NCBI GenBank assembly: GCA_963729415.1
Contig: CAVSOD010000013.1
Coordinates: 14,784 to 78,783 of the forward strand
Source of the DNA: an uncultured Acidobacteriota bacterium
GTDB lineage: Bacteria > Acidobacteriota > Terriglobia > Terriglobales > Acidobacteriaceae
Direction: 5' to 3'
Length of the DNA: 64,000 nucleotides
Shown: positions 15,318 through 46,218 of the stretch, one piece after another
Layout: each line of letters opens with the position of its first letter
Position numbering within the stretch: the stretch's first letter is position 1
Position numbers and translations under genes: made by a program
Notes under the pieces: model-generated
Told to the model about the DNA's origin: nothing
The model's input: the letters and a program-made list of their open reading frames with translations, nothing else
Database searches by the model: none

Positions 15318-15334
15318 AGGTCGTAAAGCCCCCT

Positions 15335-19602: not shown

Positions 19603-19623
19603 CAGTTCACATCATTCGGAGGT

Positions 19624-21462: not shown

Positions 21463-22350
21463 TTATCTCGTCGCGTGTGCGAGATCGACCGCTAGGGGTT
21501 GCCACACTGTCACCATTTGCCGTGATTCGCCCAGTCTGTCAATCCCAAGTTCCACTATGTCGCCCACCTTCAGGTATTGCGGAGGCCGCATGCCTAATCC
21601 CACTCCGGCCGGTGTTCCTGTGCTGATGACGTCGCCTGGCAGTAGCGTCATGAATTGACTGACGTAGCTGACGAGGGTCGGTACGTCAAAGATCATCTCG
21701 CGGGTGGAACTGCGTTGGCGAAATGCGCCATTTACTTTCAGCCACATGTTCAGGTCGCCGGGATTGGGGATCTCGTCGCGCGTCGCCAGGAACGGCCCCA
21801 ACGGCGCAAAGGTGTCGGCGCTCTTTCCCTTGACCCATTGTCCGCCCCGCTCCAGTTGAAAGACCCGTTCGGAATAATCGTTGTGCAGAACATAACCAGC
21901 CACATATTCGAGCGCGTCTTCACGCTCGATATAGCTTGCCCTCTTGCCGATCACCACCGCCAACTCAACTTCCCAATCCACTTTGGATCCATTCTTCGGA
22001 ATGACAAGGTCATCGTTCGGGCCGACGAGAGAGCTGGTAGCTTTGAAAAATATGACGGGCTCTTTCGGGATCTCCATTTTGCTTTCTTTCGCGTGATCGT
22101 GGAAGTTCAAACCGATGCAAACGATCTTGCTCGGTCGAGCAATCGGCGAGCCCAGCCGCACAGACTGTGCAATCTGCGGCGCCGAAGCTGCATTGTCCTT
22201 CCACCAGCGCCTCAGTTGGGACAGCCCGTCATCGGCCAGGAATGTCTCGTCATAGTCGCCTGTGAAGCCGGAGACATCCCGACGCGTGGAGTCTTCCAGC
22301 ATGACGCCGGGCTTCTCTCCACCTGGAACACCAAACCGGATCAGCTTCAT
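21463..22350 (-). CDS. fumarylacetoacetate-hydrolase-family protein, candidate 2,4-diketo-3-deoxy-L-fuconate/rhamnonate hydrolase
   Basis: Start moved to MKLIRFG... (ATG 22350). FAH-fold motifs (...VCIGLNFHDHAKE..., ...GDVISTGTPAGVG...). Confidence 0.75.
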   Translation of the reverse strand: MKLIRFGVPGGEKPGVMLEDSTRRDVSGFTGDYDETFLADDGLSQLRRWWKDNAASAPQIAQSVRLGSPIARPSKIVCIGLNFHDHAKESKMEIPKEPVIFFKATSSLVGPNDDLVIPKNGSKVDWEVELAVVIGKRASYIEREDALEYVAGYVLHNDYSERVFQLERGGQWVKGKSADTFAPLGPFLATRDEIPNPGDLNMWLKVNGAFRQRSSTREMIFDVPTLVSYVSQFMTLLPGDVISTGTPAGVGLGMRPPQYLKVGDIVELGIDRLGESRQMVTVWQPLAVDLAHATR

Positions 22351-22593
22351 TTCCTTCTGCCCGTCCTCGCGTGCCTGATCACGCTCAAAGTAGTTCGCCA
22401 CGAAAAAGGCGGATCGTAATTGAACAGATGCACGAGCGCAAGCCCGCGACGGAAGTTGTTGAGCTGGCGAACCGCAGAGTTTCACAAGGTAAAACTTTCG
22501 CCATCGACATCGGCGCGCGAAAACACAAAACTGTTTTCACCCTTTACCGTTGCTGCTAGAGTTTGCCGTTGCACAAGTCATTGGGACCTCACC

Positions 22594-23676
22594 ATGAATG
22601 ACATCTTTCCGCACCTCGATTACAAACCGAAGCTACCGCAGCGATTGGACCACGGAATCGGCATTATCGGCGCCGGAGGAATCGTCAACTATGCGCATCT
22701 ACCTGCGTACAAGAAGGCGGGATTTAAAGTTGTGTGCATCACCGACCGAGATCGCGAAAAGGCGGAGCGCACCGCCAAAGAGCACGGAATCGGAAGAGTG
22801 TGCGCCAGTGTCGATGAGTTGCTGAGTCTATCCGAGGTCGAGATCGTCGACATAGCCGTCTACCCCTCGGAGCAGGTCGCTATTGTCGAGAAGGCCGCTG
22901 CCGCAGGCAAACATCTGTTGTGCCAGAAACCTTTTGCCGACGAGTATTCAAAAGCGGTTCGCAGCGTTGAACTCGCGGAACGCGCCAAGGTAAAGATTGC
23001 GGTCAACCAACAGATGCGCTGGGATGCTGGCATCCGTTGCGCGCGCCTTTTGATGGATGATGGTTGGCTGGGCACGCCCACCTACGCTGCGATTCAGGTT
23101 CACTGTAAGACTGACTGGAGTCTCTGGCCCTGGATCTATCAGGGCAAGCATGTCGAGATCATGTTTCACAGCATTCATTACATCGATTCCCTTCGCTATC
23201 TGCTGGGTGATCCGGCTTACGTTTTCACCAGCGGAAGCCGCGCGCCGGGTGAAACCACACAAGCTGAAACCAAGACCCTAACCACGTGGGAGTACAAATC
23301 CAGCCTGCAGGTACTGATCGACGTTTGCCATACCACATGGCACGACGATCCCTATGCCATCTTTCGCTTTGAAGGCACTGAAGGCGTGATCAAGGGAACT
23401 ATCGGTCTGATGTACAACTATCCGACTGGCCGGCCCGACACCCTGGAGTTCATGTCGAAGCGTAATCCTGGCTACTGGTTCTCGGCTCGCCTCGACAGCA
23501 TGTGGATTCCGGATGCCTTCGTCGGTCCGATGGCGTCACTCATGCGGTCCATCGAGAGCGGATCGGAGCCCGAGACCAGTGGACGCGACAACCTTCGAAC
23601 GTTGCAAGTGGTATTCGCCGAATACCGCTCCATGGCAGAAAAGCGAGCCGTCCGCCCTGAAGAAATCAATGCATGA
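22594..23676 (+). CDS. Gfo/Idh/MocA-family NAD(P)-dependent oxidoreductase
   Basis: Start at ATG 22594 (MNDIFPHLDYKPK...). GIIGAGGIVNYAHLPAY Rossmann N-terminus. Confidence 0.75.
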   Translation: MNDIFPHLDYKPKLPQRLDHGIGIIGAGGIVNYAHLPAYKKAGFKVVCITDRDREKAERTAKEHGIGRVCASVDELLSLSEVEIVDIAVYPSEQVAIVEKAAAAGKHLLCQKPFADEYSKAVRSVELAERAKVKIAVNQQMRWDAGIRCARLLMDDGWLGTPTYAAIQVHCKTDWSLWPWIYQGKHVEIMFHSIHYIDSLRYLLGDPAYVFTSGSRAPGETTQAETKTLTTWEYKSSLQVLIDVCHTTWHDDPYAIFRFEGTEGVIKGTIGLMYNYPTGRPDTLEFMSKRNPGYWFSARLDSMWIPDAFVGPMASLMRSIESGSEPETSGRDNLRTLQVVFAEYRSMAEKRAVRPEEINA

Positions 23677-23682: not shown

Positions 23683-24933
23683 TTATTTGGCTGGAAGCAC
23701 GCCCTTCAAGTCCGAAGAGGACCCGGGCACCTGCGAGGTTACGTACCTGCCATTCTCTATTTGAGCAGGATCTACGAAATGTGGCTGCAGATGCGGGATG
23801 CATTCGAGAAATACCGCTTCATGCCCTAGCGCAATGTGATTAAACAGCACCATGTGTTGGTGAATCTGTCCCATATCGCCCACGTGTGGAATGACTCGCA
23901 GACCGAACTTTCGCGCCAGTAAACTGACTGTAATGAACTCAGAGATGCCGGCCACCCGCGTGCAGTCGACTTGCACAATCTGCACGGCCGCCGCCTGCAT
24001 GAAATTCTTGAACATAACGCGGTTCGGAACGTGCTCGCCCAGAGCCAACGGTATCGGCCGAACCGCATGGGAAAGTGTGCTGTGCGCGCGAATATCGTCA
24101 GGGTGAGTCGGTTCCTCTACAAAAAACGGAGCCATCTTCCGAAGCTTTTCGCACATTTCGAGTGCTTGTGGAAGGGTCCACTGCTGGTTCGCGTCAAGCA
24201 TGATCAGCGCATCTGCTCCGGCCAGGTCGCGCAACATGAAGGCGCGCCGCACGTCACGCTCCCCGTCTCGGGATCCGACCTTCAGCTTGAAAGCGTGAAA
24301 GCCCTTTGCCATCGCCTGTTGCGTCAGATCCTTCACTTGCTCGTCTTCATACTGGAACCAGCCTACGGATGTGTCATAACCGGGATAGCCGCTGCGCAAG
24401 ATGCTCTCCCGCTCTCGGCGGGAGCTCGCCTGGTTACGCAACATCGTTTCAGCCTCCTCCCGCGTGAGCACGTCTTCGAGATAGCTCAAATCGAGCAGGT
24501 CGACAATCTTTTTTGCATCGAGATCCAGGAGAAGCCGCCATAAGGGCACGCCCCGACTCTTCGCCCACAAATCGAAACACGCGTTGGTGAGCGAGGCGAG
24601 GGCCAGGTGAACGACGCCCTTATGAGGACCCAGCCAGCGAAGCTGAGGGTGTTGCGCAAGGTTTTGTGCAATCGCTCCGAAATCCGACATCAATTCCTCG
24701 ATTTCCCTGCCAATCAGTTCCTTGCCAAGCCATTCAATCGCTTCACAAACCAACTGATTGCCCAGTCCAAGCGTAAGCACGATGCCGCTGCCGAAGACCT
24801 TTTCTTGGGAGCCGAGCAGAGTGGTGGCAAATGCGTACTCGGCACCCGAGTGCACCGCGTCGCTGCCCGCCCCTTGCTCCAGCGGAAAACGCACATCCCG
24901 CGTTTCCAGCGAAGTAATCCGGAATTGTGTCAT
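23683..24933 (-). CDS. fucD: L-fuconate dehydratase (enolase superfamily)
   Basis: 416 aa, collinear with Xanthomonas FucD as I recall it (ITSLETRDVRFP..., LRWLGPHKGVVHLA..., EEPTHPDD..., GEHVPNRVMFKNF...). Confidence 0.85.
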   Translation of the reverse strand: MTQFRITSLETRDVRFPLEQGAGSDAVHSGAEYAFATTLLGSQEKVFGSGIVLTLGLGNQLVCEAIEWLGKELIGREIEELMSDFGAIAQNLAQHPQLRWLGPHKGVVHLALASLTNACFDLWAKSRGVPLWRLLLDLDAKKIVDLLDLSYLEDVLTREEAETMLRNQASSRRERESILRSGYPGYDTSVGWFQYEDEQVKDLTQQAMAKGFHAFKLKVGSRDGERDVRRAFMLRDLAGADALIMLDANQQWTLPQALEMCEKLRKMAPFFVEEPTHPDDIRAHSTLSHAVRPIPLALGEHVPNRVMFKNFMQAAAVQIVQVDCTRVAGISEFITVSLLARKFGLRVIPHVGDMGQIHQHMVLFNHIALGHEAVFLECIPHLQPHFVDPAQIENGRYVTSQVPGSSSDLKGVLPAK

Positions 24934-25099: not shown

Positions 25100-25423
25100 A
25101 TGAAGCGTTACGGTTCCGTGATCAAAGTCAGACCCGAATCTCTTGAAGCCTATAAGAAATATCACGCTGCCGTATGGCCGGAGGTCCTCGCCATGATCCG
25201 GAAATGCAAAATACAAAACTATTCCATCTATCTGAAAGACGACCTGCTCTTCGGCTACTTCGAATATCACGGGACGGACTATCCGGCCGACATGGCGAAG
25301 ATGGCTGCCGATCCGAAGACCCAGGAATGGTGGACGATCATGATGCCAATGCAGCAGCCCTTGGAGACCTGCGCCGAAGGCGAGTGGTGGGCCAATATGG
25401 AAGAAGTGTTTCATTGCGATTGA
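25100..25423 (+). CDS. rhaM: L-rhamnose mutarotase-family protein (RhaM/YiiL)
   Basis: 107 aa. ...YKKYHAAVWPEVLAMIRKCKIQNYSIYL...WW...EEVFH matches the YiiL pattern. Confidence 0.8.
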   Translation: MKRYGSVIKVRPESLEAYKKYHAAVWPEVLAMIRKCKIQNYSIYLKDDLLFGYFEYHGTDYPADMAKMAADPKTQEWWTIMMPMQQPLETCAEGEWWANMEEVFHCD

Positions 25424-25475
25424 TTTGACAGACCTCGAGTTCGACACTACAGTTCGGCTCCGGCCTAACCGCCTT

Positions 25476-26318
25476 ATGCAAATCGTGGACACGCACCAGC
25501 ACCTCTGGGACATAGAGCACTTTCGCTACTCCTGGCTCCACTCCCTTCCGCAGTTGAACCGCTCTTTCCGAATGGCGGACTATCTCGCAGCCACCGAAGG
25601 ATTGAACGTGGTGAAGTCGGTGCACATGGAAGCGGACGTCGATGAGCAGTACATGCTCGACGAGACCCGCCATTTGCTTGCGCTTGCTGAACAAACCGAC
25701 AATCCTCTCGAAGGCATCGTGGCATGCGGCCGGCCCGAGAACGAAGATTTCAAATCCTATCTGGACAAGATCGCGGCGTATCCCAAGGTAAAGGGGATTC
25801 GTCGCGTGCTCCATACCCAGCCGGACGGGGTCGGCCAGGGAGCGACCTTCCTCAAGAACGTGGCTGCGCTCTCGGATTACGGCCTCTCATTCGACATCTG
25901 CGTTCTGGCTCGGCAGCTTCCGATTGCGATCAAACTAGTCTCTAAATCCCCGGATGTGGTCTTCATCCTCGACCACTGTGGCGTGCCCCAAGTGAAGGAG
26001 CAGCATCTCGACCCTTGGCGGTCGCACATCACGGAGATCGCCAAGTTTCCAAATGTCTCCTGCAAAATCTCCGGCTTGGTGGCATACGCAGATTCAGAGC
26101 GATGGACTGCTGAAGACCTCAGACCTTTTGTCGAGCACGTGATCGTCACCTTCGGCTGGGATCGCGTCCTTTTTGGGAGCGACTGGCCGGTGTGCACGCT
26201 CTCCGCCAGCTATCGACAGTGGGTGGAAGCATTGCAGGCCCTCACGCACGAAGCAGGTGAGATCAACCAGAAGAAGCTGTTTCACGACAATGCCGTCCGC
26301 GTATACCGGCTGAGCTAA
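25476..26318 (+). CDS. amidohydrolase-2-family lactonase (cog3618 type, candidate L-fucono-/L-rhamnono-lactonase)
   Basis: MQIVDTHQHLWD N-terminus typical of this family. The ORF track offers an alternative TTG start at 25425. Confidence 0.7.
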   Translation: MQIVDTHQHLWDIEHFRYSWLHSLPQLNRSFRMADYLAATEGLNVVKSVHMEADVDEQYMLDETRHLLALAEQTDNPLEGIVACGRPENEDFKSYLDKIAAYPKVKGIRRVLHTQPDGVGQGATFLKNVAALSDYGLSFDICVLARQLPIAIKLVSKSPDVVFILDHCGVPQVKEQHLDPWRSHITEIAKFPNVSCKISGLVAYADSERWTAEDLRPFVEHVIVTFGWDRVLFGSDWPVCTLSASYRQWVEALQALTHEAGEINQKKLFHDNAVRVYRLS

Positions 26319-27521
26319 AGCCCAAACTCCCTCTGAATGGTCGCGGTGTGTTCTCCTACTCTGGGGGCGAGCCCCGTGCTGGTCAGAAGAGCTCCGTCCA
26401 ACCGAATCGGTAGGCGAGTGGTCAGAATCTCGATTCCTCGTCCATTGGTAAGGGTTTGCACCATGGCGAGTTCCTTGAAAGCTTTGCTTGCGCAGAGCTT
26501 GGGCCAATCCAAGACCTCGGCGCACCAGATGTCAGCGGCGTTCAGTATCTCGAGCCAGTGCTCGGTGGTGTGCTCCTTGAGGCGACTGCGCAATAATCTT
26601 CTTGATCTCGTCGCGACGTTGGAAACCCTCGGCCGAGTTCGAGATTTCCTGGAGCGCAGGTAAATCGAGCAATTTGCCGAGCGTCGGAAGATGGGTCATG
26701 GCCAGGGCCAGGTAGCCGTTCGCCGTGTCGTAGACCCCGTAAGGCGCCGCCAGGTAGGCGTGGGCGTTGCGAAATGTACTCCTCCGCGGTGGCCGTCGTC
26801 CGTCATTCAAGTGCGTCGTCAGCACTTCAAATTGGAAGTCCAGTAAGGCCTCAATCAGGCTGGTTTCGACGAGTCCACCGTGGCCCATCACGCCACGTCG
26901 CACGAGACAGGCCAAAATTCCCTCGCACAGGTTGTGGCCCGCCAGCATATCGGCGATAGCCAGAGCCATCGGCGTAGGCGGATCGCCGTCGTTGCCGCTC
27001 AGCCACATGATTCCGGATCGCGCCTGTGCCAGCAGGTCCTGACCTGGTCGATCGCGCCATGCCTCCGCATTCCCATACCCGGACACGATTCCGTACACCA
27101 ACCGGCTGTTTATCTGCGACACGCTGTCGTAACCAAGTCCCAGCCTCTCCATCACGCCCGGACGGAAGTTCTGCACCATCACATCGGTGCGCGCTATTAA
27201 TTGGCGGAGTTTATCGAGAGCGACGGGATCCTTCAGGTCTGCGGCATAGCTCTCCTTGTTGCGATTGATCGCGTGAAAGAGCGTGTTCTCGCCGTGCACA
27301 TCGGTATCGCTGAGGTAGAGCGTGCGGCCCAGGTCTCCAGTCCCAGGCCGTTCGATCTTGATCACGCGGGCGCCAAGATCCGCCAAGCGAAGGGTGGCCA
27401 ATGAACCGGAAAGAAACTGGCTGAAATCCAGCACCAGCACACCCTGGAGGGGTCTTTCTGTCTTCGGATCGCGGCGAACTGTCGAAATAGTCACGGAGAG
27501 GCTCCTGGCTGTGGTGGGCAC
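26315..27521 (-). pseudogene. family-III CoA-transferase (CaiB/BaiF type), frameshifted near 26583-26588
   Basis: ORF 26532..27521 (...LQGVLVLDFSQFLSGSLATLRLADLGARVIKIERPGTGD...RRDEIKKIIAQ) continues in ORF 26315..26593 (RLKEHTTEHWLEILNAADIWCAEV...). One extra nt (or a 2-nt loss) separates the frames. Confidence 0.75.
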
Positions 27522-27598
27522 TCGTCACCGGATTCCTTGCACCGGGGGATGCTCCCAACTCAGGCACGTTGCGATTTCAATTCTACCCATAAAATAAT

Positions 27599-27615
27599 AT
27601 TTTCATTAGGAAAAT
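27599..27615. promoter_or_regulatory. inverted repeat ATTTTC-attag-GAAAAT in an AT-rich stretch 26 nt upstream of the second IclR gene
   Basis: Read directly. It has the same 6-5-6 architecture as GTTTCA-tagag-TGAAAC at 14328-14344. Confidence 0.4.
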
Positions 27616-27640
27616 AACGTAGTAGGCTAAAGATGCTCTT

Positions 27641-28465
27641 ATGACCCCCCGGCGCACGATTCGTCGGCAGCTTGCTTCGCGGAGAATCCGCTACGCTGCT
27701 CCAGCTCTCGAAAAGGGCCTGGACATCCTGGAGCTACTAGCTTCCGTCTCGGACTCTCTGACGCACAGCGAGATTGCCAGCCGACTAGGGCGCACCATTA
27801 CCGAAGTCTTCCGCATGTTGGTGTGTCTCGAAGAACGGGGCTATCTTTCGCGGACGGGTACAGACGAGCGCTACCAGCTGACGCTGAAGCTGTTCGAGAT
27901 TGTCCATCAGCATCGCCCTCTGCAACGCCTGATAACTCAGGCGCGCCCGCTGGTACAACGGGTGGCGAGCGAAACCGGACAGTCCTGCCATTTGGCTATG
28001 CTCAACAACGCGGAGGTAGTTCTGGTAGCGCAGTCTGACGCGCCCGGTAACATGGGTTTCTCAGTCCGTCTTGGTGCAAATATTGATCTTCTGAACACCG
28101 CTTCCGGACACGTCATCCTGGCGTTTCAGAGCGAGGAGGTCCGCGCCCGCGCGCTGGGAGCCTGGCGTCTGCGTTCCAGAAAACCAGTCCCGCTCGGCCT
28201 TTCCCGTCACCTGAACCAAATTCGTCGGCGAGGCTATGAGGAACTGGCCAGCTACCAAGTCCACGGAGTCGTGAACATCAGCTATCCAGTATTGAATCAA
28301 CACGGAGAGGCGATTGCGGCGATGACTGTGCCATTTCTTGCTCGCATCGGAGACAGCCTGGGGCCGCCCCAGGTCAAGGAGGCGTTGAGTGCGGCATCCC
28401 GTGCGCTTTCCTTAGCCATCGGCGGCAAGAGACTGGAACTTTCATCCGGAATGCTGCTGCCATGA
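27641..28465 (+). CDS. IclR-family transcriptional regulator, first gene of the operon
   Basis: wHTH ([13 protein letters not shown]...[20 protein letters not shown]) plus an IclR effector domain. Its stop overlaps the next start (ATGA). Confidence 0.85.
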
Positions 28466-28911
28466 CGCGAACAGAGTATTTCGAGGATTATTCAATCGGC
28501 GCCCAACGCGTCACCTCGGGGCGGACAATTACCGAGACCGACGTCGTCATTCATGCGGGCCACACGGGAGACTACTTCCCGCACCACGTTGACGCGGAAT
28601 TTGCCCGGGCAACACCGTTCGGCCAGCGAATCGCCCACGGCACTATGACCTTCGCCATCGGCATCGGCCTCACAGCCAGTCAGATTAATCCTGTCGCATT
28701 TACCTACGGGTATGACAAGGTGCGCTTCCCAAAGCCCGTCTTCATCGGAGACACGCTACGGACTCGCGTCACTGTGAAGGAGAAGCAGGACGACCCCAAG
28801 CGGAAAGGGTTGGGTCGCATCGTGGAAGCTTGCGAAGTGCTCAATCAGCGCGATGAGATAGTCCTGTATTGCGAGCACATTCTGCTAGCTGAGAAGCGCC
28901 CGGCCGCTTGA
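28462..28911 (+). CDS. MaoC-like hotdog-fold dehydratase/hydratase (149 aa)
   Basis: ...[26 protein letters not shown]...FGQRIAHG... is a typical MaoC_dehydratase signature. Confidence 0.75.
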
Positions 28912-28949
28912 TCGGGCTACCGGTGCTTTCAGAAGGGAGGAGGTTTAGT

Positions 28950-30122
28950 GTGGGAATCACTCTGAGAGGGCTCACCTGGGATCATCCCCGCGGTTACGCC
29001 CCTTTGCTTGGAGGTGTCCCCGAATATAAGACACAACATCCTGAAATCGATGTCCAGTGGGACCGGCGAACTTTGCGTGAATTTGGCGAAGCTCCGATCG
29101 AGCAATATCTGGATCGCTATGATCTGCTCATCGTGGACCACCCGTTCGTCGGATTCGCCGCAGCTCACGCGGCACTTGTGGACCTCGCGCCTTCGATCAG
29201 CGAAGTGGAGAAACATCGTTTCGCGATAGACTCCGTAGGCCCTTCCTGGAAATCCTACTGGTATGACGGCGGCCTCTGGGCCTTCCCCATCGATGCCGCA
29301 ACGCAAGTCGCATCCTATCGGCCTGATCTTTTATCAGTGTTGTCTTCCACTGTTCCGAACACCTTCGACGATGTCTTGGGAGTGGGAGCAAAAGCTCGCA
29401 AAATTGGGAAACACATCGTTGTGCCCGCGTGTCCGACAGATGCGATCAGTCTTTTCTTTACCTTGAGTGCAAATCTCGGAGATCCTGTTCCCGGAGAGCG
29501 CGAACTCTTCGTGGAAGACTCGGTCGCAGCAGACGTGCTTGGTAGGCTTCACGCGCTCATAGCCGTTGCGCATCCCAAGTCGGTCGACTGGAACCCGATC
29601 CAAGTTTACGATTTCATGTCCAGCAGTTCCGACGCGGTCTACTGTCCGTACGGCTTCGGTTATTCCAACTACTCGCGAGTGAGTAGCTCGGTGCGATTGA
29701 AGTTCACGAATGCTCCCACTGCAGGCCAGCATGGATGCGCCGGGACAACGCTGGGAGGGACGGGGGTTGCAATTAGTAAGCACAGCGCAAATCAACCAGA
29801 AGCCATCTCCTACGCCAAATGGCTGGTCAGCCCCGAACACCAGCGAGGGACCTATTTTCGCGAAGGAGGCCAACCTGCCAGCCTGGCGGCCTGGAGGAAC
29901 CCATCAGTGAATGCGGCATCAGACGACTTCTTTGCCGGTACGCTGCAGACTCTACAGACCGCCTACGTGCGACCCCGTTTCGATGGATTCGTTCGTTTCT
30001 TTGAGGCTGCAGGAATCGAAATCAATCGTTGCTTACGCGGAGAAATCAAGGATGCAGCGCTGATCCGATGGCTTAATGATCGCTACGCCACTCAGCGAAT
30101 CGCAGCACGCCGAATCGCGTAG
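28950..30122 (+). CDS. solute-binding-protein-fold protein (family-1 SBP-like) without signal peptide
   Basis: GGAGG at 28939-28943 lies 6 nt before GTG 28950. The protein starts [20 protein letters not shown].... It has SBP-like length and composition, no hydrophobic leader, and no adjacent permease or ATPase. Confidence 0.55.
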
Positions 30123-30139
30123 CGACAGAGAGGCACCTG

Positions 30140-30661
30140 GTGAGAAACCCGAATCCCGATCCCGCGAAGCATAAAGAGATTTCTATCTGGAATGCCGAAG
30201 ATTGGTTGTACGAGGACTTCGAGGTGGGCAAGCGTGCGCGTTCGATTCGGCGCACGATTTCCGAGGGCGAGAGCATGTTGTTCAATGCCATGGTTCTCGA
30301 CATGCACCCCTACGTGGCCGACGATGTTTTCGCCAAAGAAGAGGGAGTTTTTGGAAAGCGGCTGGTGGCGGGCGCCATGGTATTTAGTCTGGGATTAGGA
30401 CTCATGGCGCACAACAACATTCATACTTTTAGCTACGGATACGACAAGTTGCGCTTCATCAAACCGGTTTTCGTTGGCGATACCATTTACACCATTCGCA
30501 CGCAAATGGAGAAACTACCCAAGTACGCTGAAATGGGGATGGTAAGGGTCTCTTACGAAGTCTTCAAGATGCCAGGAGAGCTGGTGCTGTATTGCGAACA
30601 CTTGCAAACCGTGAAGTATCGCGACCCCACGAAGTTCAAGGACCAACTGCAGCAGAAGTAA
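30140..30661 (+). CDS. MaoC-like hotdog-fold dehydratase/hydratase (173 aa)
   Basis: ...[26 protein letters not shown]...[10 protein letters not shown]... and the shared tail ...LVLYCEHL, as in the first MaoC gene. GTG start. Confidence 0.7.
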
Positions 30662-30672
30662 AGCATCTCCTT

Positions 30673-31329
30673 ATGACGCCACCGGGATCGCTCGCCGAAC
30701 GATTGCAAAGCTGCTATAGCGGGGCCGTGTTTGACGTGCTGAGGACGAAAGGCTTTCTCAGGCAGACCCTCCCGCAATACATCCGCCCTTTGAATCTGCA
30801 GCACAAGCTTGCCGGCCCGGTATTTACCATCGAGGGGAGGCGGGACGATTCGTTGGACGCTCATGAGAGCCTTCTGCGGTGGTGTGAACTCTTGTCCAAG
30901 GCGCCCGCGAACACAGTGTTGATCTGTCAACCCAATGACCACACTCTGGCGTACATGGGAGAACTCTCCGCCGAGACCCTGCACCACAAGAAGGTGCTAG
31001 GCTACATCGTGGATGGCGGATGCCGCGATTCGGCTTTTATCGAGAGCATGGGTTTTCCGGTGTTCTGCAAGTATTTCACTCCGGTGGACGTAGTGAGCAA
31101 GTGGGCAACCACGTCTCTGGGCGAGCCTATTCAGATCGGCGAAGTCACGGTATCCACGGGTGACTATGTACTTGCCGATCGCGACGGAATCGTGATCGTC
31201 CCCGGTGCAATCGCTTCAGAGGTGCTGCAAGAGACCGAAGAAGTCCTGCGCAAAGAAAATCTCGTGCGAAAGGCGATTCTGCAGGGTGTTGACCCGGTTC
31301 AAGCTTACCTGCGGTACGGAAAGTTTTGA
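30673..31329 (+). CDS. RraA-like protein (class II pyruvate aldolase / oxaloacetate decarboxylase family)
   Basis: Start at ATG 30673 (MTPPGSLAERL...). ...AYMGELSAETLHHKKVLGYIVDGGCRDSAFIESMGFPVF... matches the RraA/HMG-CHA aldolase core. Confidence 0.7.
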   Translation: MTPPGSLAERLQSCYSGAVFDVLRTKGFLRQTLPQYIRPLNLQHKLAGPVFTIEGRRDDSLDAHESLLRWCELLSKAPANTVLICQPNDHTLAYMGELSAETLHHKKVLGYIVDGGCRDSAFIESMGFPVFCKYFTPVDVVSKWATTSLGEPIQIGEVTVSTGDYVLADRDGIVIVPGAIASEVLQETEEVLRKENLVRKAILQGVDPVQAYLRYGKF

Positions 31330-31646
31330 TGCAAACGGAAGGCAAATCAAGAAAGCTGCTGCGCATTCATCGCGACGACAACGTGTTGATCGTCGTCGTA
31401 CCTATAAGACCCGGGGATCGTGACATCCTTGATGGGCGCGAAGTCGTGTTCACTCAGAACATTGCAATCGGCCACAAGGTTGCTGTCCGAGATATCGAAA
31501 CGGGAGAAAAGATATTTAAGTGTGGTGTTCCGATTGGTTCGGCCAAAGAGAGCATTCCTGCAGGAGGACACATTCACCTGCATAACCTGAAGAGTGACTA
31601 CATCGCAACTTACACTTTGGACAAAGATCATGTCTTCGTCAAGTAA
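31329..31646 (+). CDS. UxaA/GarD/SuyA-type small subunit (SAF beta-clip domain only)
   Basis: ...DNVLIVVVPIRPGD...IAIGHKVAVRDIETGEKIFKCGVPIGSAKESIPAGGHIHLHNL is the N-terminal SAF module of altronate/galactarate dehydratases, encoded here as a separate gene. Confidence 0.7.
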   Translation: MQTEGKSRKLLRIHRDDNVLIVVVPIRPGDRDILDGREVVFTQNIAIGHKVAVRDIETGEKIFKCGVPIGSAKESIPAGGHIHLHNLKSDYIATYTLDKDHVFVK

Positions 31647-32844
31647 CACCCTTGCACTGCAAGGCTTTCTGCGCTCGGACGGAAGAAAAGGAATCCGTAA
31701 CTGCATCGTTGTCGCCTATCTTGTGGAATGCGCTCACCACGTGGCTCGCGAGATCGTGGACGCTTTTCGGGATCAACCGGTTCATTTGATCGGCTTTGGA
31801 GGATGCTACCCCAACGCCTACGCTGACCGGATGATGAATACGCTCTGTACCCATCCGAACGTCGGGGGGGCACTGCTGCTTTCCCTGGGATGCGAAAGCT
31901 TTAATCGGCATCGCCTCGCTGAAAATATTGCTAAGACCGGCCGGCCCGTGGAGACAGTCGTCATCCAGCAGACGGGGGGAACAAGGAAATCCATCGAGTC
32001 GGGCAAAACGTGGGTCTCGAAGGCGCTCCAGCAGATTGCTGAGGTGCCGCGGGCTCCATTGCACGTGAACGAACTCGTGGTAGGAACCGTTTGCGGCGGA
32101 TCGGACGCCACCAGCGGAATCTCGGCTAATCCCGCGGTGGGACGTGCTTTCGACATGCTAGTTAAGCAAGGCGCGGCCACGATCTTCGAGGAAACCGGTG
32201 AAATGATCGGACTCGAAGACGTCATGTCGGCCCGCGCGGTCACGTCGGAGCTTGGCCACGAACTGAAAACATCCGTCGAAAAAGCAGCACATTACTACAA
32301 GCAAATGGGGCATGCCAGTTTCGCGCCGGGCAATGCCGAGGGTGGACTAACCACCATCGAGGAAAAGTCGATCGGAGCATATTGCAAGAGTGGCGATTCC
32401 CCCATCTCCGGACTCATCAAGCCCGGCGACGTTCCTCATAGGGGCGGTCTGTACCTATTGGATGTCGTCCCCGATGGCGAGCCGCGATTTGGATTCCCCA
32501 ATATTAACGACAATGCCGAAATTGCCGAACTGATCGCCTGCGGTTCCCACGTGATCTTGTTCACGACCGGACGCGGTTCGGTGGTGGGCTCTGCGATTTC
32601 GCCCGTCATAAAAATCTGCGCGAACCCGGAGACCTACGAGCGCATGAGCGATGATATGGACATCAATGCGGGGAAAATCCTGCGGTTGGAAGCGAGCGTA
32701 GACGAAGTCGGCGATGAAATTTACCGAAAAGTATTGGACGTGGCATCGGGGACGCAGAGTTGTTCCGAGAGCCTCGGACATCAGGAGTTCGTGCTCACCT
32801 ACAAGTCGTTTGAGCCCATCGGACCAGCTTGCCTGCCTGGGTGA
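31630..32844 (+). CDS. UxaA/GarD/SuyB-type large subunit (GD_AH_C dehydratase domain)
   Basis: ATG 31630 (MSSSSNTLALQGFLRSDGRKGIRNCIVV...) overlaps the small-subunit gene by 17 nt. ...GCESFN..., ...VCGGSDATSG..., ...LFTTGRGS... are typical of the family. Confidence 0.75.
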   Translation: MSSSSNTLALQGFLRSDGRKGIRNCIVVAYLVECAHHVAREIVDAFRDQPVHLIGFGGCYPNAYADRMMNTLCTHPNVGGALLLSLGCESFNRHRLAENIAKTGRPVETVVIQQTGGTRKSIESGKTWVSKALQQIAEVPRAPLHVNELVVGTVCGGSDATSGISANPAVGRAFDMLVKQGAATIFEETGEMIGLEDVMSARAVTSELGHELKTSVEKAAHYYKQMGHASFAPGNAEGGLTTIEEKSIGAYCKSGDSPISGLIKPGDVPHRGGLYLLDVVPDGEPRFGFPNINDNAEIAELIACGSHVILFTTGRGSVVGSAISPVIKICANPETYERMSDDMDINAGKILRLEASVDEVGDEIYRKVLDVASGTQSCSESLGHQEFVLTYKSFEPIGPACLPG

Positions 32845-33500
32845 GGCTTCGCTTGGTTGAAGCGCTCTAACCACCCTGGGTCTGAGTGCTCCACGTCCCC
32901 ATCTTCAAGGGTGTCGAGCCGCCCGTGGTCGTGATTTTGAAGATGGTTCCACAGCCGCGGCCCAGTCCCGCCCGCTCCCGTTTTTCCGTACGAGTTCCCT
33001 TCGGTGCCTTGGACTAGGGGACCGATGGGGGTTTGACCTTCGGCGCAACCGCACTTGGCAACAGACCTCCGATGAGTCGCCCGGCTTGCTTGTCCCGCAG
33101 CCGACTATGAGCTGACTTAACCCGTTTGTTTTGAAACAGCTACTGCCCAGAGCTTCACCCCCCTGACGCGACATATAAACAATTCGGTGAGAGAGGTTTG
33201 TCGTGGAGCGCAGGGAAGCAACGCGACCTAGGGCCTTCTTTTTCCATCCACACACCCCCGAAGCTCTGAGAGGGCCAATGAAATGAAGGGACCCTGAAGC
33301 GGAGCCCTCAAAGAAACCTAAACAGTCACACAGCCTATAGGCGTTTTTTGTTCGAAAACGACAAAACAAGCGACTATTCTGATCGAAAAGATCATAAAAA
33401 CGATTGACTCCTGCGGGATAAGCGCATTACGATGCGTCCAGTTTTCCAGAATCGGGCTTCCGTGCGTGAAGACATTCTGAGATGGCGGAGGAGCGTGCTT

Positions 33501-36500
33501 ATGACGGGCGCACAACTTAGCGAGAAAAGAGGTCTGCTCCGGGGCGCATTGGCGATTGTTTTCTTACTTAGTGCGATGCCCCTCTGGGCCCAGTTTGATA
33601 CGGGCACGATCAAAGGCGCGGTGACGGATCCGTCGGGCGCTGGCGTGCCGAAAGCAAAGATTACCGCGACAAACGTCGGAACGGGCATTGACACCTCGAC
33701 GACCAGCGACGCAAACGGAGACTTCGTGATCTCCGCTGTTCCGTATGGCAACTACGTAGTCAAGGCCAATGCTGCGGGTTTTGCCGAAGCCACGAGTCCA
33801 TCCATTGTTTTGAACGTGGGTGCGATTGTGCGCGTCAACCTTGCCTTGGCGATCGCGTCCGCGCAGCAGAAGATCGAAGTCACCGGAACCACGACGACGG
33901 TGCAGACGGAAACCACCCAGGACGGCACAACCCTTAACTCAGTACAGGTTGCGAACCTCCCGGTGAATGGTCGCGACGTCAGCGATTTTCTGGAAGTTGC
34001 CCCGGGATCGATCAACTCCACGGGGTTCTTTCAAGGCAGCGTGAATGGGCTGGAGAACGTCTTTACCGGCCTCAACATCACGGTGGACGGGCAAAACGCG
34101 TCGCGCGGCGATATCAATGGCTTCCTTGACACCGAGGGTCAGGAAGGTGCGCGCGTCACGCGCTCCAGTCTCGACAGCATTCAGGAAATTGACTTCACCA
34201 ACAGTGGCTACAGCGCGGAAAAGGGCTATTCGCTCGGCCCGCAGATGAACGTCATCACGAAGTCAGGGAGCAACAACCTGCATGGAACCGCGTTTGAATT
34301 CCTGCGCAACGATGCGTTCGATGCCAAGGATTACTTCGACACGGGAAAAGTAGCGCCGCTGCGGCTCAATCAATTCGGTGGAAATCTAGGCGGGCCGCTC
34401 ATTAAGAACAAGCTCTTCTTCTTTGTGAACTACGAGGGCGATCGGACGATCATTAACAACTTCAATGCGTTGTACCAGATTCCCAGTGCATACTTGCGCT
34501 CTGAAGCTCACGATCCCCGGATGGATCCCGTATTTGCGCAGTTTGCGCCCTTGCCGGCGAACTGCAACACCATCCCCGCCCCGGCCTCTTGCGCCGTGCC
34601 CGGCTTCGATAATCCCGGTGATCCTGCGAGCGGGTCGCAACTTATTTACACCTTGGCCGTCCTGCCCAACCGACTCACGGAAAACACTGGGTCCGTAAAA
34701 GTTGATTGGAACATCTCGGAGCGAGATCACACGTTCGTCCGCTACAACATCAATGACTCGCTAACGAACTACACGTTTGGTTTGAACCAAGGACAGGTTT
34801 CTCCGCAAAAGCTGAGGACCCAGTTGGGCAAGATTGAAGAGACGCACACGTTCAGCCCGACTCTTCTGAATCAGTTCAGCGTGTCGATCAACCGCTTCTA
34901 TTCTGATACTAACTCGAACACGCCCACGCCGTTTGTTGGTTTCGGCGGTTTCTTTACGAACCTGGGTGCCCTCCCAGGCCCGAATACCTTCAACCAGATC
35001 ACTCCCTTCAATATCTTCGAGGTCTTCGACAACGTGACGAAGACCGTAAGGCAGCACACTCTAAAGTTTGGACTGCAATACCGGTATAACCAGTTGAACG
35101 AATTCCTCAGGCCACAGCAGACCTTCTTGTTTGGTGGCGCAAACATATTTTTCCCCAACCCCTTCCATGACTTCTTGAATGACAGTCCATTCGTGCTCCA
35201 GAAGATTGGCTTTCCTGGCCCAGCGGGGATTGTGAATTCAAATTGGGGTTTCTACGGGCAGGACGACTGGAAGATTACTCGCCGACTCACCCTGAGCCTG
35301 GGGTTGCGCTACGACTACAACACGGCATGGAGTGAACGTACTCACCAGGCCGCGAACTTCGATTTCGCATCGCAAACCATACTTCCCGCGACTCAAGCCT
35401 TGTACACTCCGCCGAAAGGCGACGTCGCTCCGCGCATCGGCTTATCCTGGGATCCCTTCGGCAATGGAAAAACCGTGATCCACGGCTACGGCGGTCTCTT
35501 CTATATGCCGATGCAATTCGGCTTTGGTCTACTCAGCAACAACGCTGCTTTTCAGAGTTACAACGTAAATGTGTTCCAGGTGCCAATCGCATATCCGATG
35601 GCGAACCCGCCACTTCCGGCCGGAACACAGAACGTCAATATCTTCCCGCAGCATCCGCGTGATCCGCTTTCCACGAACTGGTTGCTAGGGGTTCAACGGG
35701 AACTCCTGCCTAACACCGTGCTCAGCATCAATTACACGGGCAATAAGGCCCAGCACATGCAGTCGGGCGTGAGTTTCGCGGCGCTCAATCTGAACCCGGC
35801 GAATACGGTGACACAGGCGCGGCAATTCAGCGGATTTGCCAGCGAGAACCTGAACGCGGACACCCTCTACTCCACCTACAATGCGTTGCAGATTCAAGTG
35901 CGCCGTAACGTCGGACGCTTGAACTACGAAGTGAACTACACCTGGTCGCATGAGCTCGACGACATGGTGAATGTCTTCGGCGGCTTTTCCGATCCGTTTA
36001 ACCCGAATGTCGACCGTGCCAGCGGAGATTGGGACGTACGTCACAATCTCACCGGCAGCGTGGTATACGACCTTCCGGATTGGAAAGGAACAAACGCGAT
36101 CGCGAAAGGCTTCCTGTCGGGATGGCAGGTGTCTAATATTCTGCAAACGCGCAGTGGTCTTCCGACCAACATCCAACTCATCAGCGGATTCTTTGGGCTC
36201 CCAATGCGGCCGAACTTCGTCTCGGGACAGAGCCCGACAGTGGGCAATGCGAAGTGGCCGATCGGCAATTACAACCCGAGCGCGTTCGCGATACCGCCGG
36301 GATTCGATGGCACATGGGGAGCTAACCTGGGAACGGTCGGTCGAAATGCGCTTCGCGGCCCCGGGTTCTTCCAATGGGACTTCTCGCTAGCAAAGAACAT
36401 TCCCATCAAAGAAGCCATTAAAGTTCAGCTTCGGGCGGACTTCTTCAACATCTTCAACCATCCCAACTTCGCGAACCCGGACGGTGGAATTTGTACTGCA

Positions 36501-36668
36501 GTGTCTCCGTTTGTGCCAGCAACGGCCACTACGCCAGCTGTGCCGGCAAGTTGCACGCCCAACGCTTCCTTTGGGCGGACTGGTCAGACAATTGCCGATA
36601 ACGTGGGCACGCAGATTGGCAACGGTACATCGCGACAGATCCAACTGGCGGTGAAGTTGATTTTCTAG
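33501..36668 (+). CDS. TonB-dependent receptor with carboxypeptidase-regulatory-like N-domain
   Basis: Start at MTGAQLSEKRGLLRGALAIVFLLSAMPLWAQ. GTIKGAVTDPSGAGVPKAKITA...YGNYVV CarboxypepD_reg pattern. C-terminal ...QLAVKLIF. Confidence 0.85.
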   Translation: MTGAQLSEKRGLLRGALAIVFLLSAMPLWAQFDTGTIKGAVTDPSGAGVPKAKITATNVGTGIDTSTTSDANGDFVISAVPYGNYVVKANAAGFAEATSPSIVLNVGAIVRVNLALAIASAQQKIEVTGTTTTVQTETTQDGTTLNSVQVANLPVNGRDVSDFLEVAPGSINSTGFFQGSVNGLENVFTGLNITVDGQNASRGDINGFLDTEGQEGARVTRSSLDSIQEIDFTNSGYSAEKGYSLGPQMNVITKSGSNNLHGTAFEFLRNDAFDAKDYFDTGKVAPLRLNQFGGNLGGPLIKNKLFFFVNYEGDRTIINNFNALYQIPSAYLRSEAHDPRMDPVFAQFAPLPANCNTIPAPASCAVPGFDNPGDPASGSQLIYTLAVLPNRLTENTGSVKVDWNISERDHTFVRYNINDSLTNYTFGLNQGQVSPQKLRTQLGKIEETHTFSPTLLNQFSVSINRFYSDTNSNTPTPFVGFGGFFTNLGALPGPNTFNQITPFNIFEVFDNVTKTVRQHTLKFGLQYRYNQLNEFLRPQQTFLFGGANIFFPNPFHDFLNDSPFVLQKIGFPGPAGIVNSNWGFYGQDDWKITRRLTLSLGLRYDYNTAWSERTHQAANFDFASQTILPATQALYTPPKGDVAPRIGLSWDPFGNGKTVIHGYGGLFYMPMQFGFGLLSNNAAFQSYNVNVFQVPIAYPMANPPLPAGTQNVNIFPQHPRDPLSTNWLLGVQRELLPNTVLSINYTGNKAQHMQSGVSFAALNLNPANTVTQARQFSGFASENLNADTLYSTYNALQIQVRRNVGRLNYEVNYTWSHELDDMVNVFGGFSDPFNPNVDRASGDWDVRHNLTGSVVYDLPDWKGTNAIAKGFLSGWQVSNILQTRSGLPTNIQLISGFFGLPMRPNFVSGQSPTVGNAKWPIGNYNPSAFAIPPGFDGTWGANLGTVGRNALRGPGFFQWDFSLAKNIPIKEAIKVQLRADFFNIFNHPNFANPDGGICTAVSPFVPATATTPAVPASCTPNASFGRTGQTIADNVGTQIGNGTSRQIQLAVKLIF

Positions 36669-38585: not shown

Positions 38586-38606
38586 TGCTGAGTGCGGGAG
38601 GAATAA

Positions 38607-39524
38607 ATGAATCGCAGGATTCTGATCCTCGCCACGGTTTGCCTCCTCGGCGGCTTCTTTCCGGCTGCGGGGGCACAGCCCACCCCCACCAACGCATGGG
38701 TTGACAGCATCGCCGAGAAGTATGCCATTTCCCCTGACGTGACGTATGGAGTCGCGAACAATTACGCGCTCAAGCTGGATGTGTGGCAGAGGAAAGACAC
38801 GAAGGGTCCCTCTCCCACTCTGATTTACTACCATGGCGGCGGGTGGATCTTCGGAGATCGCACGGGAGCCACACTGAACTTCCTACCTTATCTCGAATTG
38901 GGGTGGAACGTAGTCAACGTAGAATATCGTATGGCGCCAGTGTCGCTGGCGCCAGCAGCGGTAGAAGATTGCCGCTGCGCTTTGCGCTGGGTGGTACGAA
39001 ACGCCAAGCAGTACAACGTCGACACACAACGAATTGTCCTGACTGGGCACTCTGCGGGCGGGCACCTCTCACTTATCGCTGGAATGTTGCCCAACGGCAC
39101 GGGCCTGGATAACAACTGCTACGGCGACGATGCTCGCAGCGACAGCAAACTTAGCGTAGCGGCCATCATTAACTGGTTTGGGATCTCGGATGTCAACGAC
39201 CTGATCCAAGGCCCGAATTTGAAAAACTACGCACTGATGTGGATGGGTAGCCAGACCGATGCCGTCGCGATCGCCAAGCGCGTTTCCCCGATGACCTATG
39301 TTCGTTCGGGATTGCCACCCGTCCTCTCCATTCACGGGGATCAGGATTCGGTCGTGCCTTACGAGCAGTCGGTTCGCCTACACCAGGCCCTCACGGCGGC
39401 AGGCGTTCCGAATCAACTGATTACCATCAAAGGCGGCGGCCACGGCCAGTTCAGCGACACGCAACTGGAAGAAGCCTATGGCAAGTTGCGTCTTTTTTTG
39501 CAGGTGCACGGACTGGTGCCGTAA
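38607..39524 (+). CDS. secreted alpha/beta-hydrolase (esterase/lipase-type)
   Basis: Signal peptide, HGGGW oxyanion motif, GHSAGG nucleophile elbow. Confidence 0.75.
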   Translation: MNRRILILATVCLLGGFFPAAGAQPTPTNAWVDSIAEKYAISPDVTYGVANNYALKLDVWQRKDTKGPSPTLIYYHGGGWIFGDRTGATLNFLPYLELGWNVVNVEYRMAPVSLAPAAVEDCRCALRWVVRNAKQYNVDTQRIVLTGHSAGGHLSLIAGMLPNGTGLDNNCYGDDARSDSKLSVAAIINWFGISDVNDLIQGPNLKNYALMWMGSQTDAVAIAKRVSPMTYVRSGLPPVLSIHGDQDSVVPYEQSVRLHQALTAAGVPNQLITIKGGGHGQFSDTQLEEAYGKLRLFLQVHGLVP

Positions 39525-46202: not shown

Positions 46203-46218
46203 GAAGCGCTCCGCAGAG

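Follow-up and report, generated by a model that had tools for sequence, protein, structure and literature searches.

A conserved gene module of a CoA-transferase, a hydratase and a leaderless MalE-fold protein beside putative L-fucose-type sugar genes in an uncultured acidobacterium

We analysed a 64-kb stretch of DNA (the window, to which all coordinates refer unless another locus is named) from an uncultured Acidobacteriota bacterium, in which an operon opened by an IclR regulator faces a divergent family-III (CaiB/BaiF) coenzyme A (CoA) transferase gene. The operon comprises seven genes on the plus strand: the IclR regulator (27641-28465; Pfam PF09339 and PF01614), MaoC1 (28462-28911; PF01575, 3e-29), a solute-binding-protein-like (SBP-like) protein of 390 amino acids (28950-30122; PF01547 SBP_bac_1, 3e-11), MaoC2 (30140-30661; PF01575, 5e-11), an RraA-like protein (30673-31329; PF03737, 1e-28), a SAF piece representing the small subunit of a split UxaA (31329-31646; weak Pfam match to SAF, 2e-4) and the large UxaA piece (31630-32844; PF20629 GD_AH_second, 9e-30, and PF04295 GD_AH_C, 4e-83). 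IclR and MaoC1 share an ATGA overlap at 28462-28465, and 38 nt separate MaoC1 from the SBP-like gene, whose GTG start at 28950 is preceded by the Shine-Dalgarno sequence GGGAGGAGG; gaps of 17 nt (SBP-like/MaoC2) and 11 nt (MaoC2/RraA) follow, then a 1-nt overlap (TGATG) between RraA and the SAF piece and a 17-nt overlap between the SAF piece and the large UxaA gene. An earlier, sequence-only reading of this DNA had described the same seven same-strand genes and junctions, which we reproduced exactly from the open reading frames (ORFs); each of its domain calls was confirmed when the Pfam models were run, and its proposal of one probable transcript is upheld alongside the gene junctions. The NCBIfam matches of the operon proteins and of the CoA-transferase all lay far under the equivalog cut-offs, and for this reason none of these genes can be named from homology alone.

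A search with an alignment of 10 SBP-like sequences gathered 80 genomic loci, and partner genes were counted over 78 of them, from Acidobacteriota, Pseudomonadota, Chloroflexota, Bacteroidota, Verrucomicrobiota and one Desulfovibrio. A family-III CoA-transferase occurs near the SBP-like gene in 68 of the 78 loci. Of the 66 loci with a hydratase, either MaoC or crotonase, 46 have it within 3 kb of the SBP-like gene, without exception on the same strand; IclR is found in 64 (within 3 kb and on the same strand in 60) and a short-chain dehydrogenase/reductase (SDR) in 49. Among the 32 acidobacterial loci, MaoC and IclR are each present in 31, a lactonase in 30, the CoA-transferase, a GFO/IDH/MocA oxidoreductase (GFO) and a RhaM-family mutarotase in 28 each, RraA in 23, an enolase-superfamily gene in 18 and the split UxaA in 17. 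One Terriglobales metagenome-assembled genome (MAG) has the identical order from the enolase through UxaA; its CoA-transferase gene is uninterrupted (392 aa), and its right flank differs from that of the window. The order is GFO-ENOL-RhaM-UxaL-UxaS-AmHy-RraA-CoAT-IclR-MaoC1-SBP-MaoC2-SDR in the L017-type loci (where ENOL is the enolase, AmHy the Amidohydro_2 lactonase, and UxaL and UxaS the split UxaA, on the opposite strand) and IclR-MaoC1-SBP-MaoC2-GFO-RhaM-AmHy, on a single strand, in L022 and L023. Since the same genes recur in other arrangements, the conserved functional set exceeds the seven-gene operon. The proteins of the module are 75-94% identical across acidobacterial genomes.

Beyond the Acidobacteriota the module is likewise found among genes of sugar oxidation. 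The Desulfovibrio locus (L057) holds a DHDPS-type aldolase, IclR, RhaT, GFO, Amidohydro_2, RhaM, CoA-transferase, MaoC and SBP-like genes, and a Martelella plasmid (L086) an enolase and a CUT1 ATP-binding cassette (ABC) transporter, then IclR-amidohydrolase-RhaM-GFO-CaiB-SBP-like-MaoC; in both loci GFO adjoins the module. Two Bacteroidota loci (L070, L075) combine an MFS sugar porter, SDR, SBP-like protein, crotonase, CoA-transferase, UxuA-like dehydratase and RraA, with a 7-bladed lactonase sitting between crotonase and CoA-transferase in L070, and in Chloroflexota L050 an SMP-30 lactonase lies between the SBP-like and CoA-transferase genes. The Mesorhizobium/Kaistia type has a CUT2 ABC transporter, SDRs, a UxuA-like or enolase-type dehydratase and a family-I CoA-transferase-like protein, the Mesorhizobium-type locus additionally having RraA, and Azospirillum L034 carries a tripartite ATP-independent periplasmic (TRAP) transporter, SBP-like protein, CoA-transferase, SDR, fumarylacetoacetate-hydrolase (FAH) family protein and MaoC. 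The lactonases beside or inside the module belong to three unrelated folds (Amidohydro_2, 7-bladed propeller and SMP-30), and the associated sugar or sugar-acid transporters to the RhaT, MFS, CUT1, CUT2 and TRAP types. Smaller units also exist: IclR and TRAP followed by SBP-like-CaiB-crotonase on Vibrio nigripulchritudo pA, DctPQM-SBP-like-CoA-transferase-MaoC2 in Alsobacter, and, on Sinorhizobium meliloti pSymB (L084, 10844-13131), the CoA-transferase and SBP-like genes only, overlapping by 4 nt and adjoining traA. This last pair, which has neither hydratase nor sugar genes, occurs on many pSymB replicons of S. meliloti and S. medicae, with matches in 90 Sinorhizobium records, and offers a genetically tractable entry point.

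Two further observations concern these loci. Adjoining the RhaM-GFO-CaiB-SBP-like-MaoC genes of Martelella mediterranea pMM593 (L086) is a second sugar cluster (11741-21101) with LacI, FAH, a CUT2 ABC transporter, enoyl-CoA hydratase, CoA transferase, SDR and aldose 1-epimerase and no SBP-like gene, so that pairs of CoA-transferase and hydratase in sugar clusters may extend beyond the SBP-like family. The Bacteroidota clusters also encode a small protein of 139-148 aa next to RraA and SDR (L070, 6159-6578 and 8753-9193; L075, ~15085-15530); for the single copy that was scanned (L070, 8753-9193), Pfam gave no match at 1e-5.

The AlphaFold2 model of the SBP-like protein (mean predicted local distance difference test score of 95.8) is a confident MalE fold of the CUT1 type, and Foldseek aligned it at a template-modelling score of ~0.8 with MalE3, SmoF and trehalose/maltose-binding SBPs at 15-20% identity; the structural matches were solely transport SBPs and maltose-binding-protein fusions, with no precedent of an SBP-fold enzyme among them. 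Members of the family (Pfam SBP_bac_1 and SBP_bac_8) are ~385 aa long and begin 2-6 residues ahead of the first beta-strand; none of 44 aligned members has a signal peptide or lipobox, which upholds the earlier description of a leaderless SBP-fold protein, and the operon holds no permease or ATPase genes. A role as a transport SBP was dropped, because only the fold agrees with it, leader and permease genes both being absent. We predict that the protein stays in the cytoplasm and works there with the CoA-transferase and the hydratase. Among the residues that never vary in the family are W, D, DHP, GG-G, Q, GQP and RP, and H13, R15, D59, D64, H65, Q309 and R342 are invariant positions. Its closest relatives, at 77-95% identity, stem from soil metagenomes and from MAGs that carry the label Terriglobales or Candidatus Sulfotelmatobacter; at least 564 relatives were found among the first 600 pattern matches listed in GTDB species-representative genomes, and the family forms 474 clusters at 50% identity (E <1e-30). 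A 64%-identical paralogue in another Terriglobia MAG (L025; CAWAYW010000025, 5272-14594) is surrounded by RhaT, Amidohydro_2, two SDRs, a DeoC/LacD-type aldolase, a class-V aminotransferase and a GHL6/GH42M protein. Because neither a CoA-transferase nor a hydratase lies within 10 kb of this paralogue, the ligand of the fold is suggested to be a sugar or sugar acid rather than CoA.

Concerning the hydratases, MaoC1 has an intact hydratase-2 motif with its Asp/His dyad (GDYFPHH), which is kept in the aligned orthologues, and MaoC2 shows the degenerate motif L-D-M-H-P-Y-V, with Val in place of the catalytic His in all orthologues. A pair with one intact motif is the pattern of heterodimeric hot-dog hydratases with a single active site, and MaoC2 is probably, to judge from its motif, the non-catalytic partner of MaoC1. 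The MaoC proteins weakly match the RipB/Ich and mesaconyl-CoA hydratase models (RipB_Ich, 57 bits against a cut-off of 340). In 32 non-acidobacterial loci a crotonase is found instead of MaoC, with the motif GGGMELVLCCD...LPEIKLG, in which, to judge by eye, both hydratase Glu residues appear to be kept; this motif suggests plain hydration or dehydration of a thioester.

The CoA-transferase gene (26315-27521, minus strand) is disrupted in the window. An N part of 329 aa (26532-27521; Pfam CoA_transf_3, 4e-74) and a C part of 92 aa (26315-26593; 2e-10) lie in two frames, split by one extra base at ~26578-26586 according to a comparison with ten orthologous genes; the gene is intact in all 10 closest loci, where the orthologue is 392 aa long. 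The earlier reading was right about the family and the divergent orientation of this gene but overlooked the frameshift. The intact orthologue of locus L001 matches formyl-CoA transferase, YfdE and SUGCT at ~1e-50, and the Asp of its ALAIADMLAG segment aligns with the Asp of GVAMTDIVAG in the best formyl-CoA-transferase chain, which we take, from Frc, to be the catalytic Asp of the family. The NCBIfam model for L-carnitine CoA-transferase gives 63 bits against a cut-off of 413. A second frameshifted gene, of the enolase superfamily (MR_MLE; 17231-18483, minus strand), lies 9 kb away: ORF 17503-18483 stops within the C-terminal domain and the remainder is ORF 17231-17578 in another frame, the L001 orthologue being intact (369 aa) and adjoining RhaT. 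Two frameshifts within 10 kb point either to indel errors in the sequence or to decay of the island or its genes.

A 50-nt block is conserved across an alignment of 29 acidobacterial CoA-transferase/IclR intergenic regions and contains, in the window, the operator-like inverted repeat ATAAAAT-N4-TTTTCAT (27589-27606, plus strand). This conservation supports a regulatory unit consisting of the CoA-transferase and the operon under their own IclR protein, a repressor whose own expression is probably among its targets at the divergent promoter. In the whole 64 kb such a repeat is found just twice. The second (ATAAAAATTATGTTTCAT, 14317-14334) lies upstream of another IclR gene (14475-15317), between it and the divergent gene for a TonB-dependent outer-membrane protein (10605-14141). 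A scan for promoters and terminators gave no signal above shuffled sequences, and a GC-rich inverted-repeat pair in the intergenic region was discarded as not conserved.

To the left of the CoA-transferase lies a set of sugar genes in the order RhaT, FG-GAP/ASPIC protein, FAH, GFO, FucD-like enolase, RhaM and Amidohydro_2. The RhaT-family sugar/H+ symporter (18202-19602, plus strand; PF06379, 1e-25) has its RhaT domain at ORF residues 129-465, which makes a true start close to 18586 probable; 15 related loci also contain RhaT genes. The FAH-family protein (21463-22485, minus strand; PF01557, 6e-72), 70-80% identical to copies in related loci, is a candidate 2,4-diketo-3-deoxy-aldonate hydrolase for the route-3 cleavage to pyruvate and a hydroxy acid (PMC6336799, PMC11199699). 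The GFO/IDH/MocA oxidoreductase (22420-23676, plus strand; PF01408 and PF22725) is a candidate sugar 1-dehydrogenase. The enolase-superfamily protein (23683-24933, minus strand) is L-fuconate-dehydratase-like (FucD-like), matching Xanthomonas campestris L-fuconate dehydratase (2hxt/1yey) and human ENOSF1 at 1e-103 in a phmmer search against the PDB. It is followed by a RhaM-family mutarotase of the L-rhamnose/L-fucose type (25100-25423, plus strand; PF05336, 6e-35) and an L-fucono-1,5-lactonase-like Amidohydro_2 lactonase (25425-26318, plus strand; PF04909, 1e-54), which scores 148 bits with the NCBIfam model FuconLaconase (cut-off 400). The sequence-only reading left the FAH, GFO, enolase, RhaM and lactonase genes outside its operon boundaries, yet they belong to the same conserved set.

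The RraA and UxaA proteins of the operon may serve the same kind of chemistry. The NCBIfam galactarate dehydratase model is divided between the small gene (positions 3-78) and the large gene (positions 104-493), and the large subunit matches Escherichia coli GarD (6u7l) at 5e-46. Its Cys34, Cys59, Cys88 and Cys155 are invariant or nearly so among 18 homologues and fit, by spacing, Cys134/173/208/276 of C785_RS13685. Four such Cys are conserved in all UxaA/GarD-superfamily members but SuyAB (PMC6336799). In this superfamily a D-arabinonate dehydratase with weak L-fuconate activity was shown by Watanabe et al., and a two-gene heteromeric L-fuconate dehydratase was deduced from gene context in Paraburkholderia mimosarum (PMC6336799). 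The split UxaA is accordingly a candidate, from its sequence, for an aldonate dehydratase of the L-fuconate, L-galactonate or D-arabinonate type. RraA, which scores 72-84 bits with the LigK/PcmE equivalog models (cut-offs 179-304), is a candidate non-orthologous 2-keto-3-deoxy-aldonate aldolase of the HMG/CHA-aldolase family. Both vary among the related acidobacterial loci: the RraA gene is often a 43%-identical copy located elsewhere, and UxaA is absent from L014, L015, L022 and L023 and differs in position in the L017-type loci. This variability marks the two as accessory, which removes the idea that the seven genes form one indivisible system.

The window thus clusters a mutarotase, a dehydrogenase, a lactonase, aldonate dehydratases and cleavage enzymes, as an L-fucose-type locus does, and apart from the C4 dehydrogenase it matches the enzyme set of the non-phosphorylative L-fucose pathway as known from the Xanthomonas route (PMC11199699). 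The nearest SDR in the window (40676-41491) lies outside the island, and related loci have an SDR beside the module; an aldehyde dehydrogenase was seen neither in the island nor in the related loci. We propose that the substrate of the island would be an L-fucose-type sugar (6-deoxy-L-hexose, L-galactose or D-arabinose configuration). Seven acidobacterial loci (L017-, L024- and L026-type) contain an LldD-like dehydrogenase of alpha-hydroxy acids dependent on flavin mononucleotide (FMN) (PF01070, 1e-130; at ~12600-13850, minus strand, after the SDR downstream of MaoC2), and its presence is consistent with L-lactate as an end product of the pathway.

The wider region resembles an acidobacterial polysaccharide-utilisation region (10605-14141, 33432-36668 and 36831-46250). 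It holds two CarboxypepD_reg/OMP_b-brl_4 outer-membrane proteins of the TonB type, a BD-FAE esterase, a DUF4432 protein, an SDR, a GH38 protein of 1191 aa with a PL4-type domain resembling carbohydrate-binding modules, and a third enolase-superfamily gene (45009-46250); the ORF at 36831-38585 (584 aa) has no Pfam match.

Taken together, the operon consists of an IclR repressor, an accessory pair of dehydratase and aldolase, and a conserved CoA module which has no characterised counterpart in the literature searched. With confidence a little short of even, we read the region from ~18.2 to 32.8 kb as one oxidative, non-phosphorylative island for an L-fucose-type sugar in an acidobacterium of the Terriglobia type, in which the embedded CoA module acts in the manner of CaiB/CaiD. 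The sugar would be taken up by RhaT and its anomers interconverted by RhaM, oxidised to the lactone by the GFO-family dehydrogenase and opened to the aldonate by the Amidohydro_2 lactonase; the FucD-like enolase would then dehydrate the aldonate to the 2-keto-3-deoxy acid, with the split UxaA/GarD-type enzyme serving a second aldonate or acting redundantly. Cleavage by the RraA-type aldolase would give pyruvate and an aldehyde or, alternatively, C4 oxidation by an SDR-type dehydrogenase would be followed by FAH cleavage to pyruvate and a hydroxy acid. Within this island the CoA-transferase would form the CoA thioester of a beta-hydroxy carboxylate derived from the sugar, be it the aldonate or a hydroxy acid further along the route. 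The MaoC1/MaoC2 heterodimer, using a single active site, would then remove water from the thioester or add it, and the CoA would move to a fresh substrate molecule, much as CaiB and CaiD bring about in the carnitine cycle. The MalE-fold protein of the cytoplasm would recognise the polyol moiety and so confer specificity, or would catalyse a further step. Such chemistry would be sensible, because the alpha-proton of a thioester is far easier to abstract than that of a free aldonate. More tentatively, we suggest that the CoA-transferase, the hydratase and the cytoplasmic MalE-fold protein constitute an undescribed, widespread system in which a sugar-derived carboxylate is handled as its CoA thioester, by way, for example, of aldonyl-CoA dehydration or cleavage, and in which a transporter-type binding protein may have been co-opted to provide catalysis or specificity.

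Several points weigh against this interpretation of the island and its CoA module. All the support for the module is gene context, and no aldonyl-CoA (fuconyl-, rhamnonyl-, galactonyl-, gluconyl-, arabinonyl- or xylonyl-CoA) is mentioned in the literature searched; the nearest characterised CoA-transferases use small dicarboxylates (oxalate, glutarate, mesaconate). The minimal units of Vibrio and Alsobacter, with TRAP, IclR and module genes, have no sugar-oxidising genes, so the module may in truth act on an organic acid that is taken up from outside and has no connection with fucose. Nor is the association of the module genes strict: the SBP-like gene occurs without a hydratase in L055, L059, L061 and S. 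meliloti and without a nearby CoA-transferase in L022, L023 and L025. A known dehydratase family is present within 10 kb in 34 of the 64 full-length loci, and this co-occurrence means that the module is not a simple substitute for the dehydration step. The search of the window found no operator-like repeat upstream of the fucose genes, so that a direct regulatory tie to them is not given. Finally, unless the extra base in the CoA-transferase gene is a sequencing error, the module may be inactive in this sequence. As to dehydration, none of ENOL, UxaA, UxuA or IlvD was found within 10 kb in 30 of the 64 full-length loci, a count that is ambiguous; the idea of the module as a plain replacement for an aldonate dehydratase was rejected, as the window itself has two conventional dehydratases.

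The resemblance of the CoA-transferase to enzymes that use dicarboxylates leads to the first alternative, which we consider unlikely: a sequence of activation, hydration and cleavage resembling Ict/Ich/Ccl, in which the CoA-transferase would activate an unsaturated or hydroxy (di)carboxylate, MaoC would hydrate the product, and the SBP-fold protein would be a new acyl-CoA lyase replacing the CitE type and the products would be acetyl-CoA and a keto acid. The models nearest to the CoA-transferase are indeed those of mesaconate, oxalate and glutarate transferases, and the MaoC proteins weakly match the hydratases of such routes, although every model match is far under its cut-off. The invariant His, Asp and Arg of the SBP-like protein appear enzyme-like, but no SBP-fold enzyme is among its structural matches. 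Self-contained units of TRAP, IclR, CoA-transferase, hydratase and SBP-like protein in Vibrio and Alsobacter agree with this alternative, and a hydroxy-acid substrate would suit the S. meliloti pair of CoA-transferase and SBP-like protein; it leaves unexplained, however, why the module is associated with a mutarotase, sugar dehydrogenase and lactonase in three phyla.

A similarly low probability attaches to mere co-location, that is, an independent organic-acid unit which happens to lie beside sugar genes and is decaying in this genome. The frameshifts in the CoA-transferase and in the enolase-family gene at 17231-18483, the minimal TRAP-linked units and the confinement of the operator repeat to the module's own promoter would fit such a history. 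However, the module is fused in operons with GFO-RhaM-AmHy in L022/L023, Desulfovibrio and Martelella, lactonase genes are inserted among its genes in Bacteroidota and Chloroflexota, and the high identity of its proteins across acidobacterial genomes argues for selection on the module.

We regard as improbable a role of the module in clearing the three-carbon product of sugar cleavage, whether by converting the L-glycerate that arises from L-galactose-type sugars via glyceryl-CoA and beta-elimination to pyruvate, or by serving a lactate/lactaldehyde branch. No aldehyde dehydrogenase was seen in the loci, D-glyceryl-CoA has been proposed as an intermediate elsewhere (PMC6365646), and in L070 and L075, where dehydrogenase, lactonase, UxuA-type dehydratase and RraA aldolase are already present, the module would be an extra step. 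But 6-deoxy sugars yield lactate or lactaldehyde, which have no beta-hydroxyl, the L017-type loci already contain the LldD-like FMN dehydrogenase, and a C3 acid needs no large pocket of the MalE type.

More doubtful still is an epimerisation, in which C2 or C3 of the aldonate would be inverted via its CoA ester, through loss and re-addition of water or through the racemase-type chemistry of family-III proteins, to feed non-cognate 6-deoxy-aldonates to FucD or UxaA. It would accord with the two distinct hot-dog subunits and with the coexistence of conventional dehydratases and the module, which holds for the window and for 34 of 64 loci, and family III includes alpha-methylacyl-CoA racemase; against it, MaoC2 has no catalytic His, and the crotonase motif suggests a plain hydratase. 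Last, the sequence-only reading had entertained a sulfo-lyase of the SuyAB type, acting with the aldolase and a CoA branch on a sulfonated acid, and this we hold very improbable: the split SAF and GD_AH architecture is that of SuyAB and some relatives are labelled Candidatus Sulfotelmatobacter, but the large subunit keeps the four Cys of iron-dependent dehydratases, which SuyAB is reported to lack (PMC6336799), a split UxaA is known from fucose operons (PMC12566272), the neighbours are fucose-pathway genes, and no sulfite exporter, sulfite dehydrogenase or sulfonate gene was found among the window ORFs scanned against Pfam.

If the proposed handling of sugar acids as thioesters is true, a CoA-dependent step would be added to the oxidative sugar pathways, and it might account for about half of the loci having no known aldonate dehydratase within 10 kb. 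To our knowledge, oxidative non-phosphorylative sugar routes are thought to proceed wholly through free acids, the deoxyribonate case, inferred from genetics, excepted. The SBP-like protein would be a new instance of a solute-binding-protein fold adapted to metabolism inside the cell, and the routine annotation of its family as extracellular or ABC-transporter binding proteins would have to be corrected; the module is spread over soil acidobacteria, rhizobia, marine Bacteroidota, Chloroflexota, Verrucomicrobiota and one Desulfovibrio. Carriers considered tractable include Martelella mediterranea, Azospirillum oleiclasticum, Flagellimonas nanhaiensis and V. nigripulchritudo.

Literature searches for this gene combination, or for CoA-transferase, hydratase, sugar acid and SBP together, found nothing, those for fucose, rhamnose or acidobacterial fuconate with CoA-transferase or MaoC returned unrelated papers only, and a paper on fucose in SAR202 has no CoA enzymes. 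The earlier claim that no characterised pathway fits the locus therefore stands for the CoA-transferase, MaoC and SBP-like genes but not for the IclR regulator, split UxaA, amidohydrolase and aldolase, which fit a known L-fucose route. In Campylobacter jejuni the fucose operon (cj0480c-cj0490) is repressed by the divergent IclR-type regulator FucR and encodes a split uxaA (cj0482/cj0483), whose proposed reaction leads from L-fuconate to 2-keto-3-deoxy-L-fuconate; a fucose dehydrogenase of the SDR type, an amidohydrolase and a DapA-type aldolase are encoded there as well (PMC12566272). The window shares with it an IclR-type regulator, split UxaA, amidohydrolase-type lactonase, sugar dehydrogenase, transporter and aldolase, and shares with the Xanthomonas route the FucD-type enolase and FAH hydrolase (PMC11199699). 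It differs from the L-fucose loci of C. jejuni and of X. campestris/Burkholderia in having an RraA-type instead of a DapA/DHDPS-type aldolase, a GFO-type dehydrogenase instead of the SDR FucX and no aldehyde dehydrogenase, and in possessing the CoA-transferase, MaoC and cytoplasmic SBP-fold protein, none of which has been described in those loci. The two-gene SAF and GD_AH arrangement resembles the proposed L-fuconate dehydratase A19U_RS0100650/655 of P. mimosarum, as compared through architecture and the published description.

For the CoA module, CaiB/CaiD offers a mechanistic analogy only: there, too, a family-III CoA-transferase and a hydratase/dehydratase act on the CoA ester of a beta-hydroxy acid, and the crotonase of the 32 related loci resembles CaiD, whereas the window has a MaoC pair, an additional MalE-fold protein, no CaiA, CaiC, CaiE or CaiT, and a context of sugar oxidation rather than betaines. 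In the deoxyribonate catabolism of Klebsiella michiganensis there is genetic evidence for CoA-bound sugar-acid intermediates (PMC6365646). That cluster, like the module, has a CoA-transferase and a sugar acid proposed to be carried as a CoA thioester (PMC6365646), but it differs in its CoA-synthetase, hydroxyacyl-CoA dehydrogenase, thiolase and glycerate kinase, and neither a hydratase nor an SBP-fold protein has been described there. The itaconate pathway (Ict/Ich/Ccl) likewise pairs a CoA-transferase with a MaoC-type hydratase, and the weak matches to RipB/Ich and to mesaconate transferase recall it; in the window those scores are far below the cut-offs, no CitE/HpcH lyase is present at the locus, and the context is that of sugars. 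With the CUT1 solute-binding proteins (MalE, SmoF and the trehalose/maltose-binding proteins), finally, the SBP-like protein shares the two-lobe fold, but its partners are a CoA-transferase and a hydratase instead.

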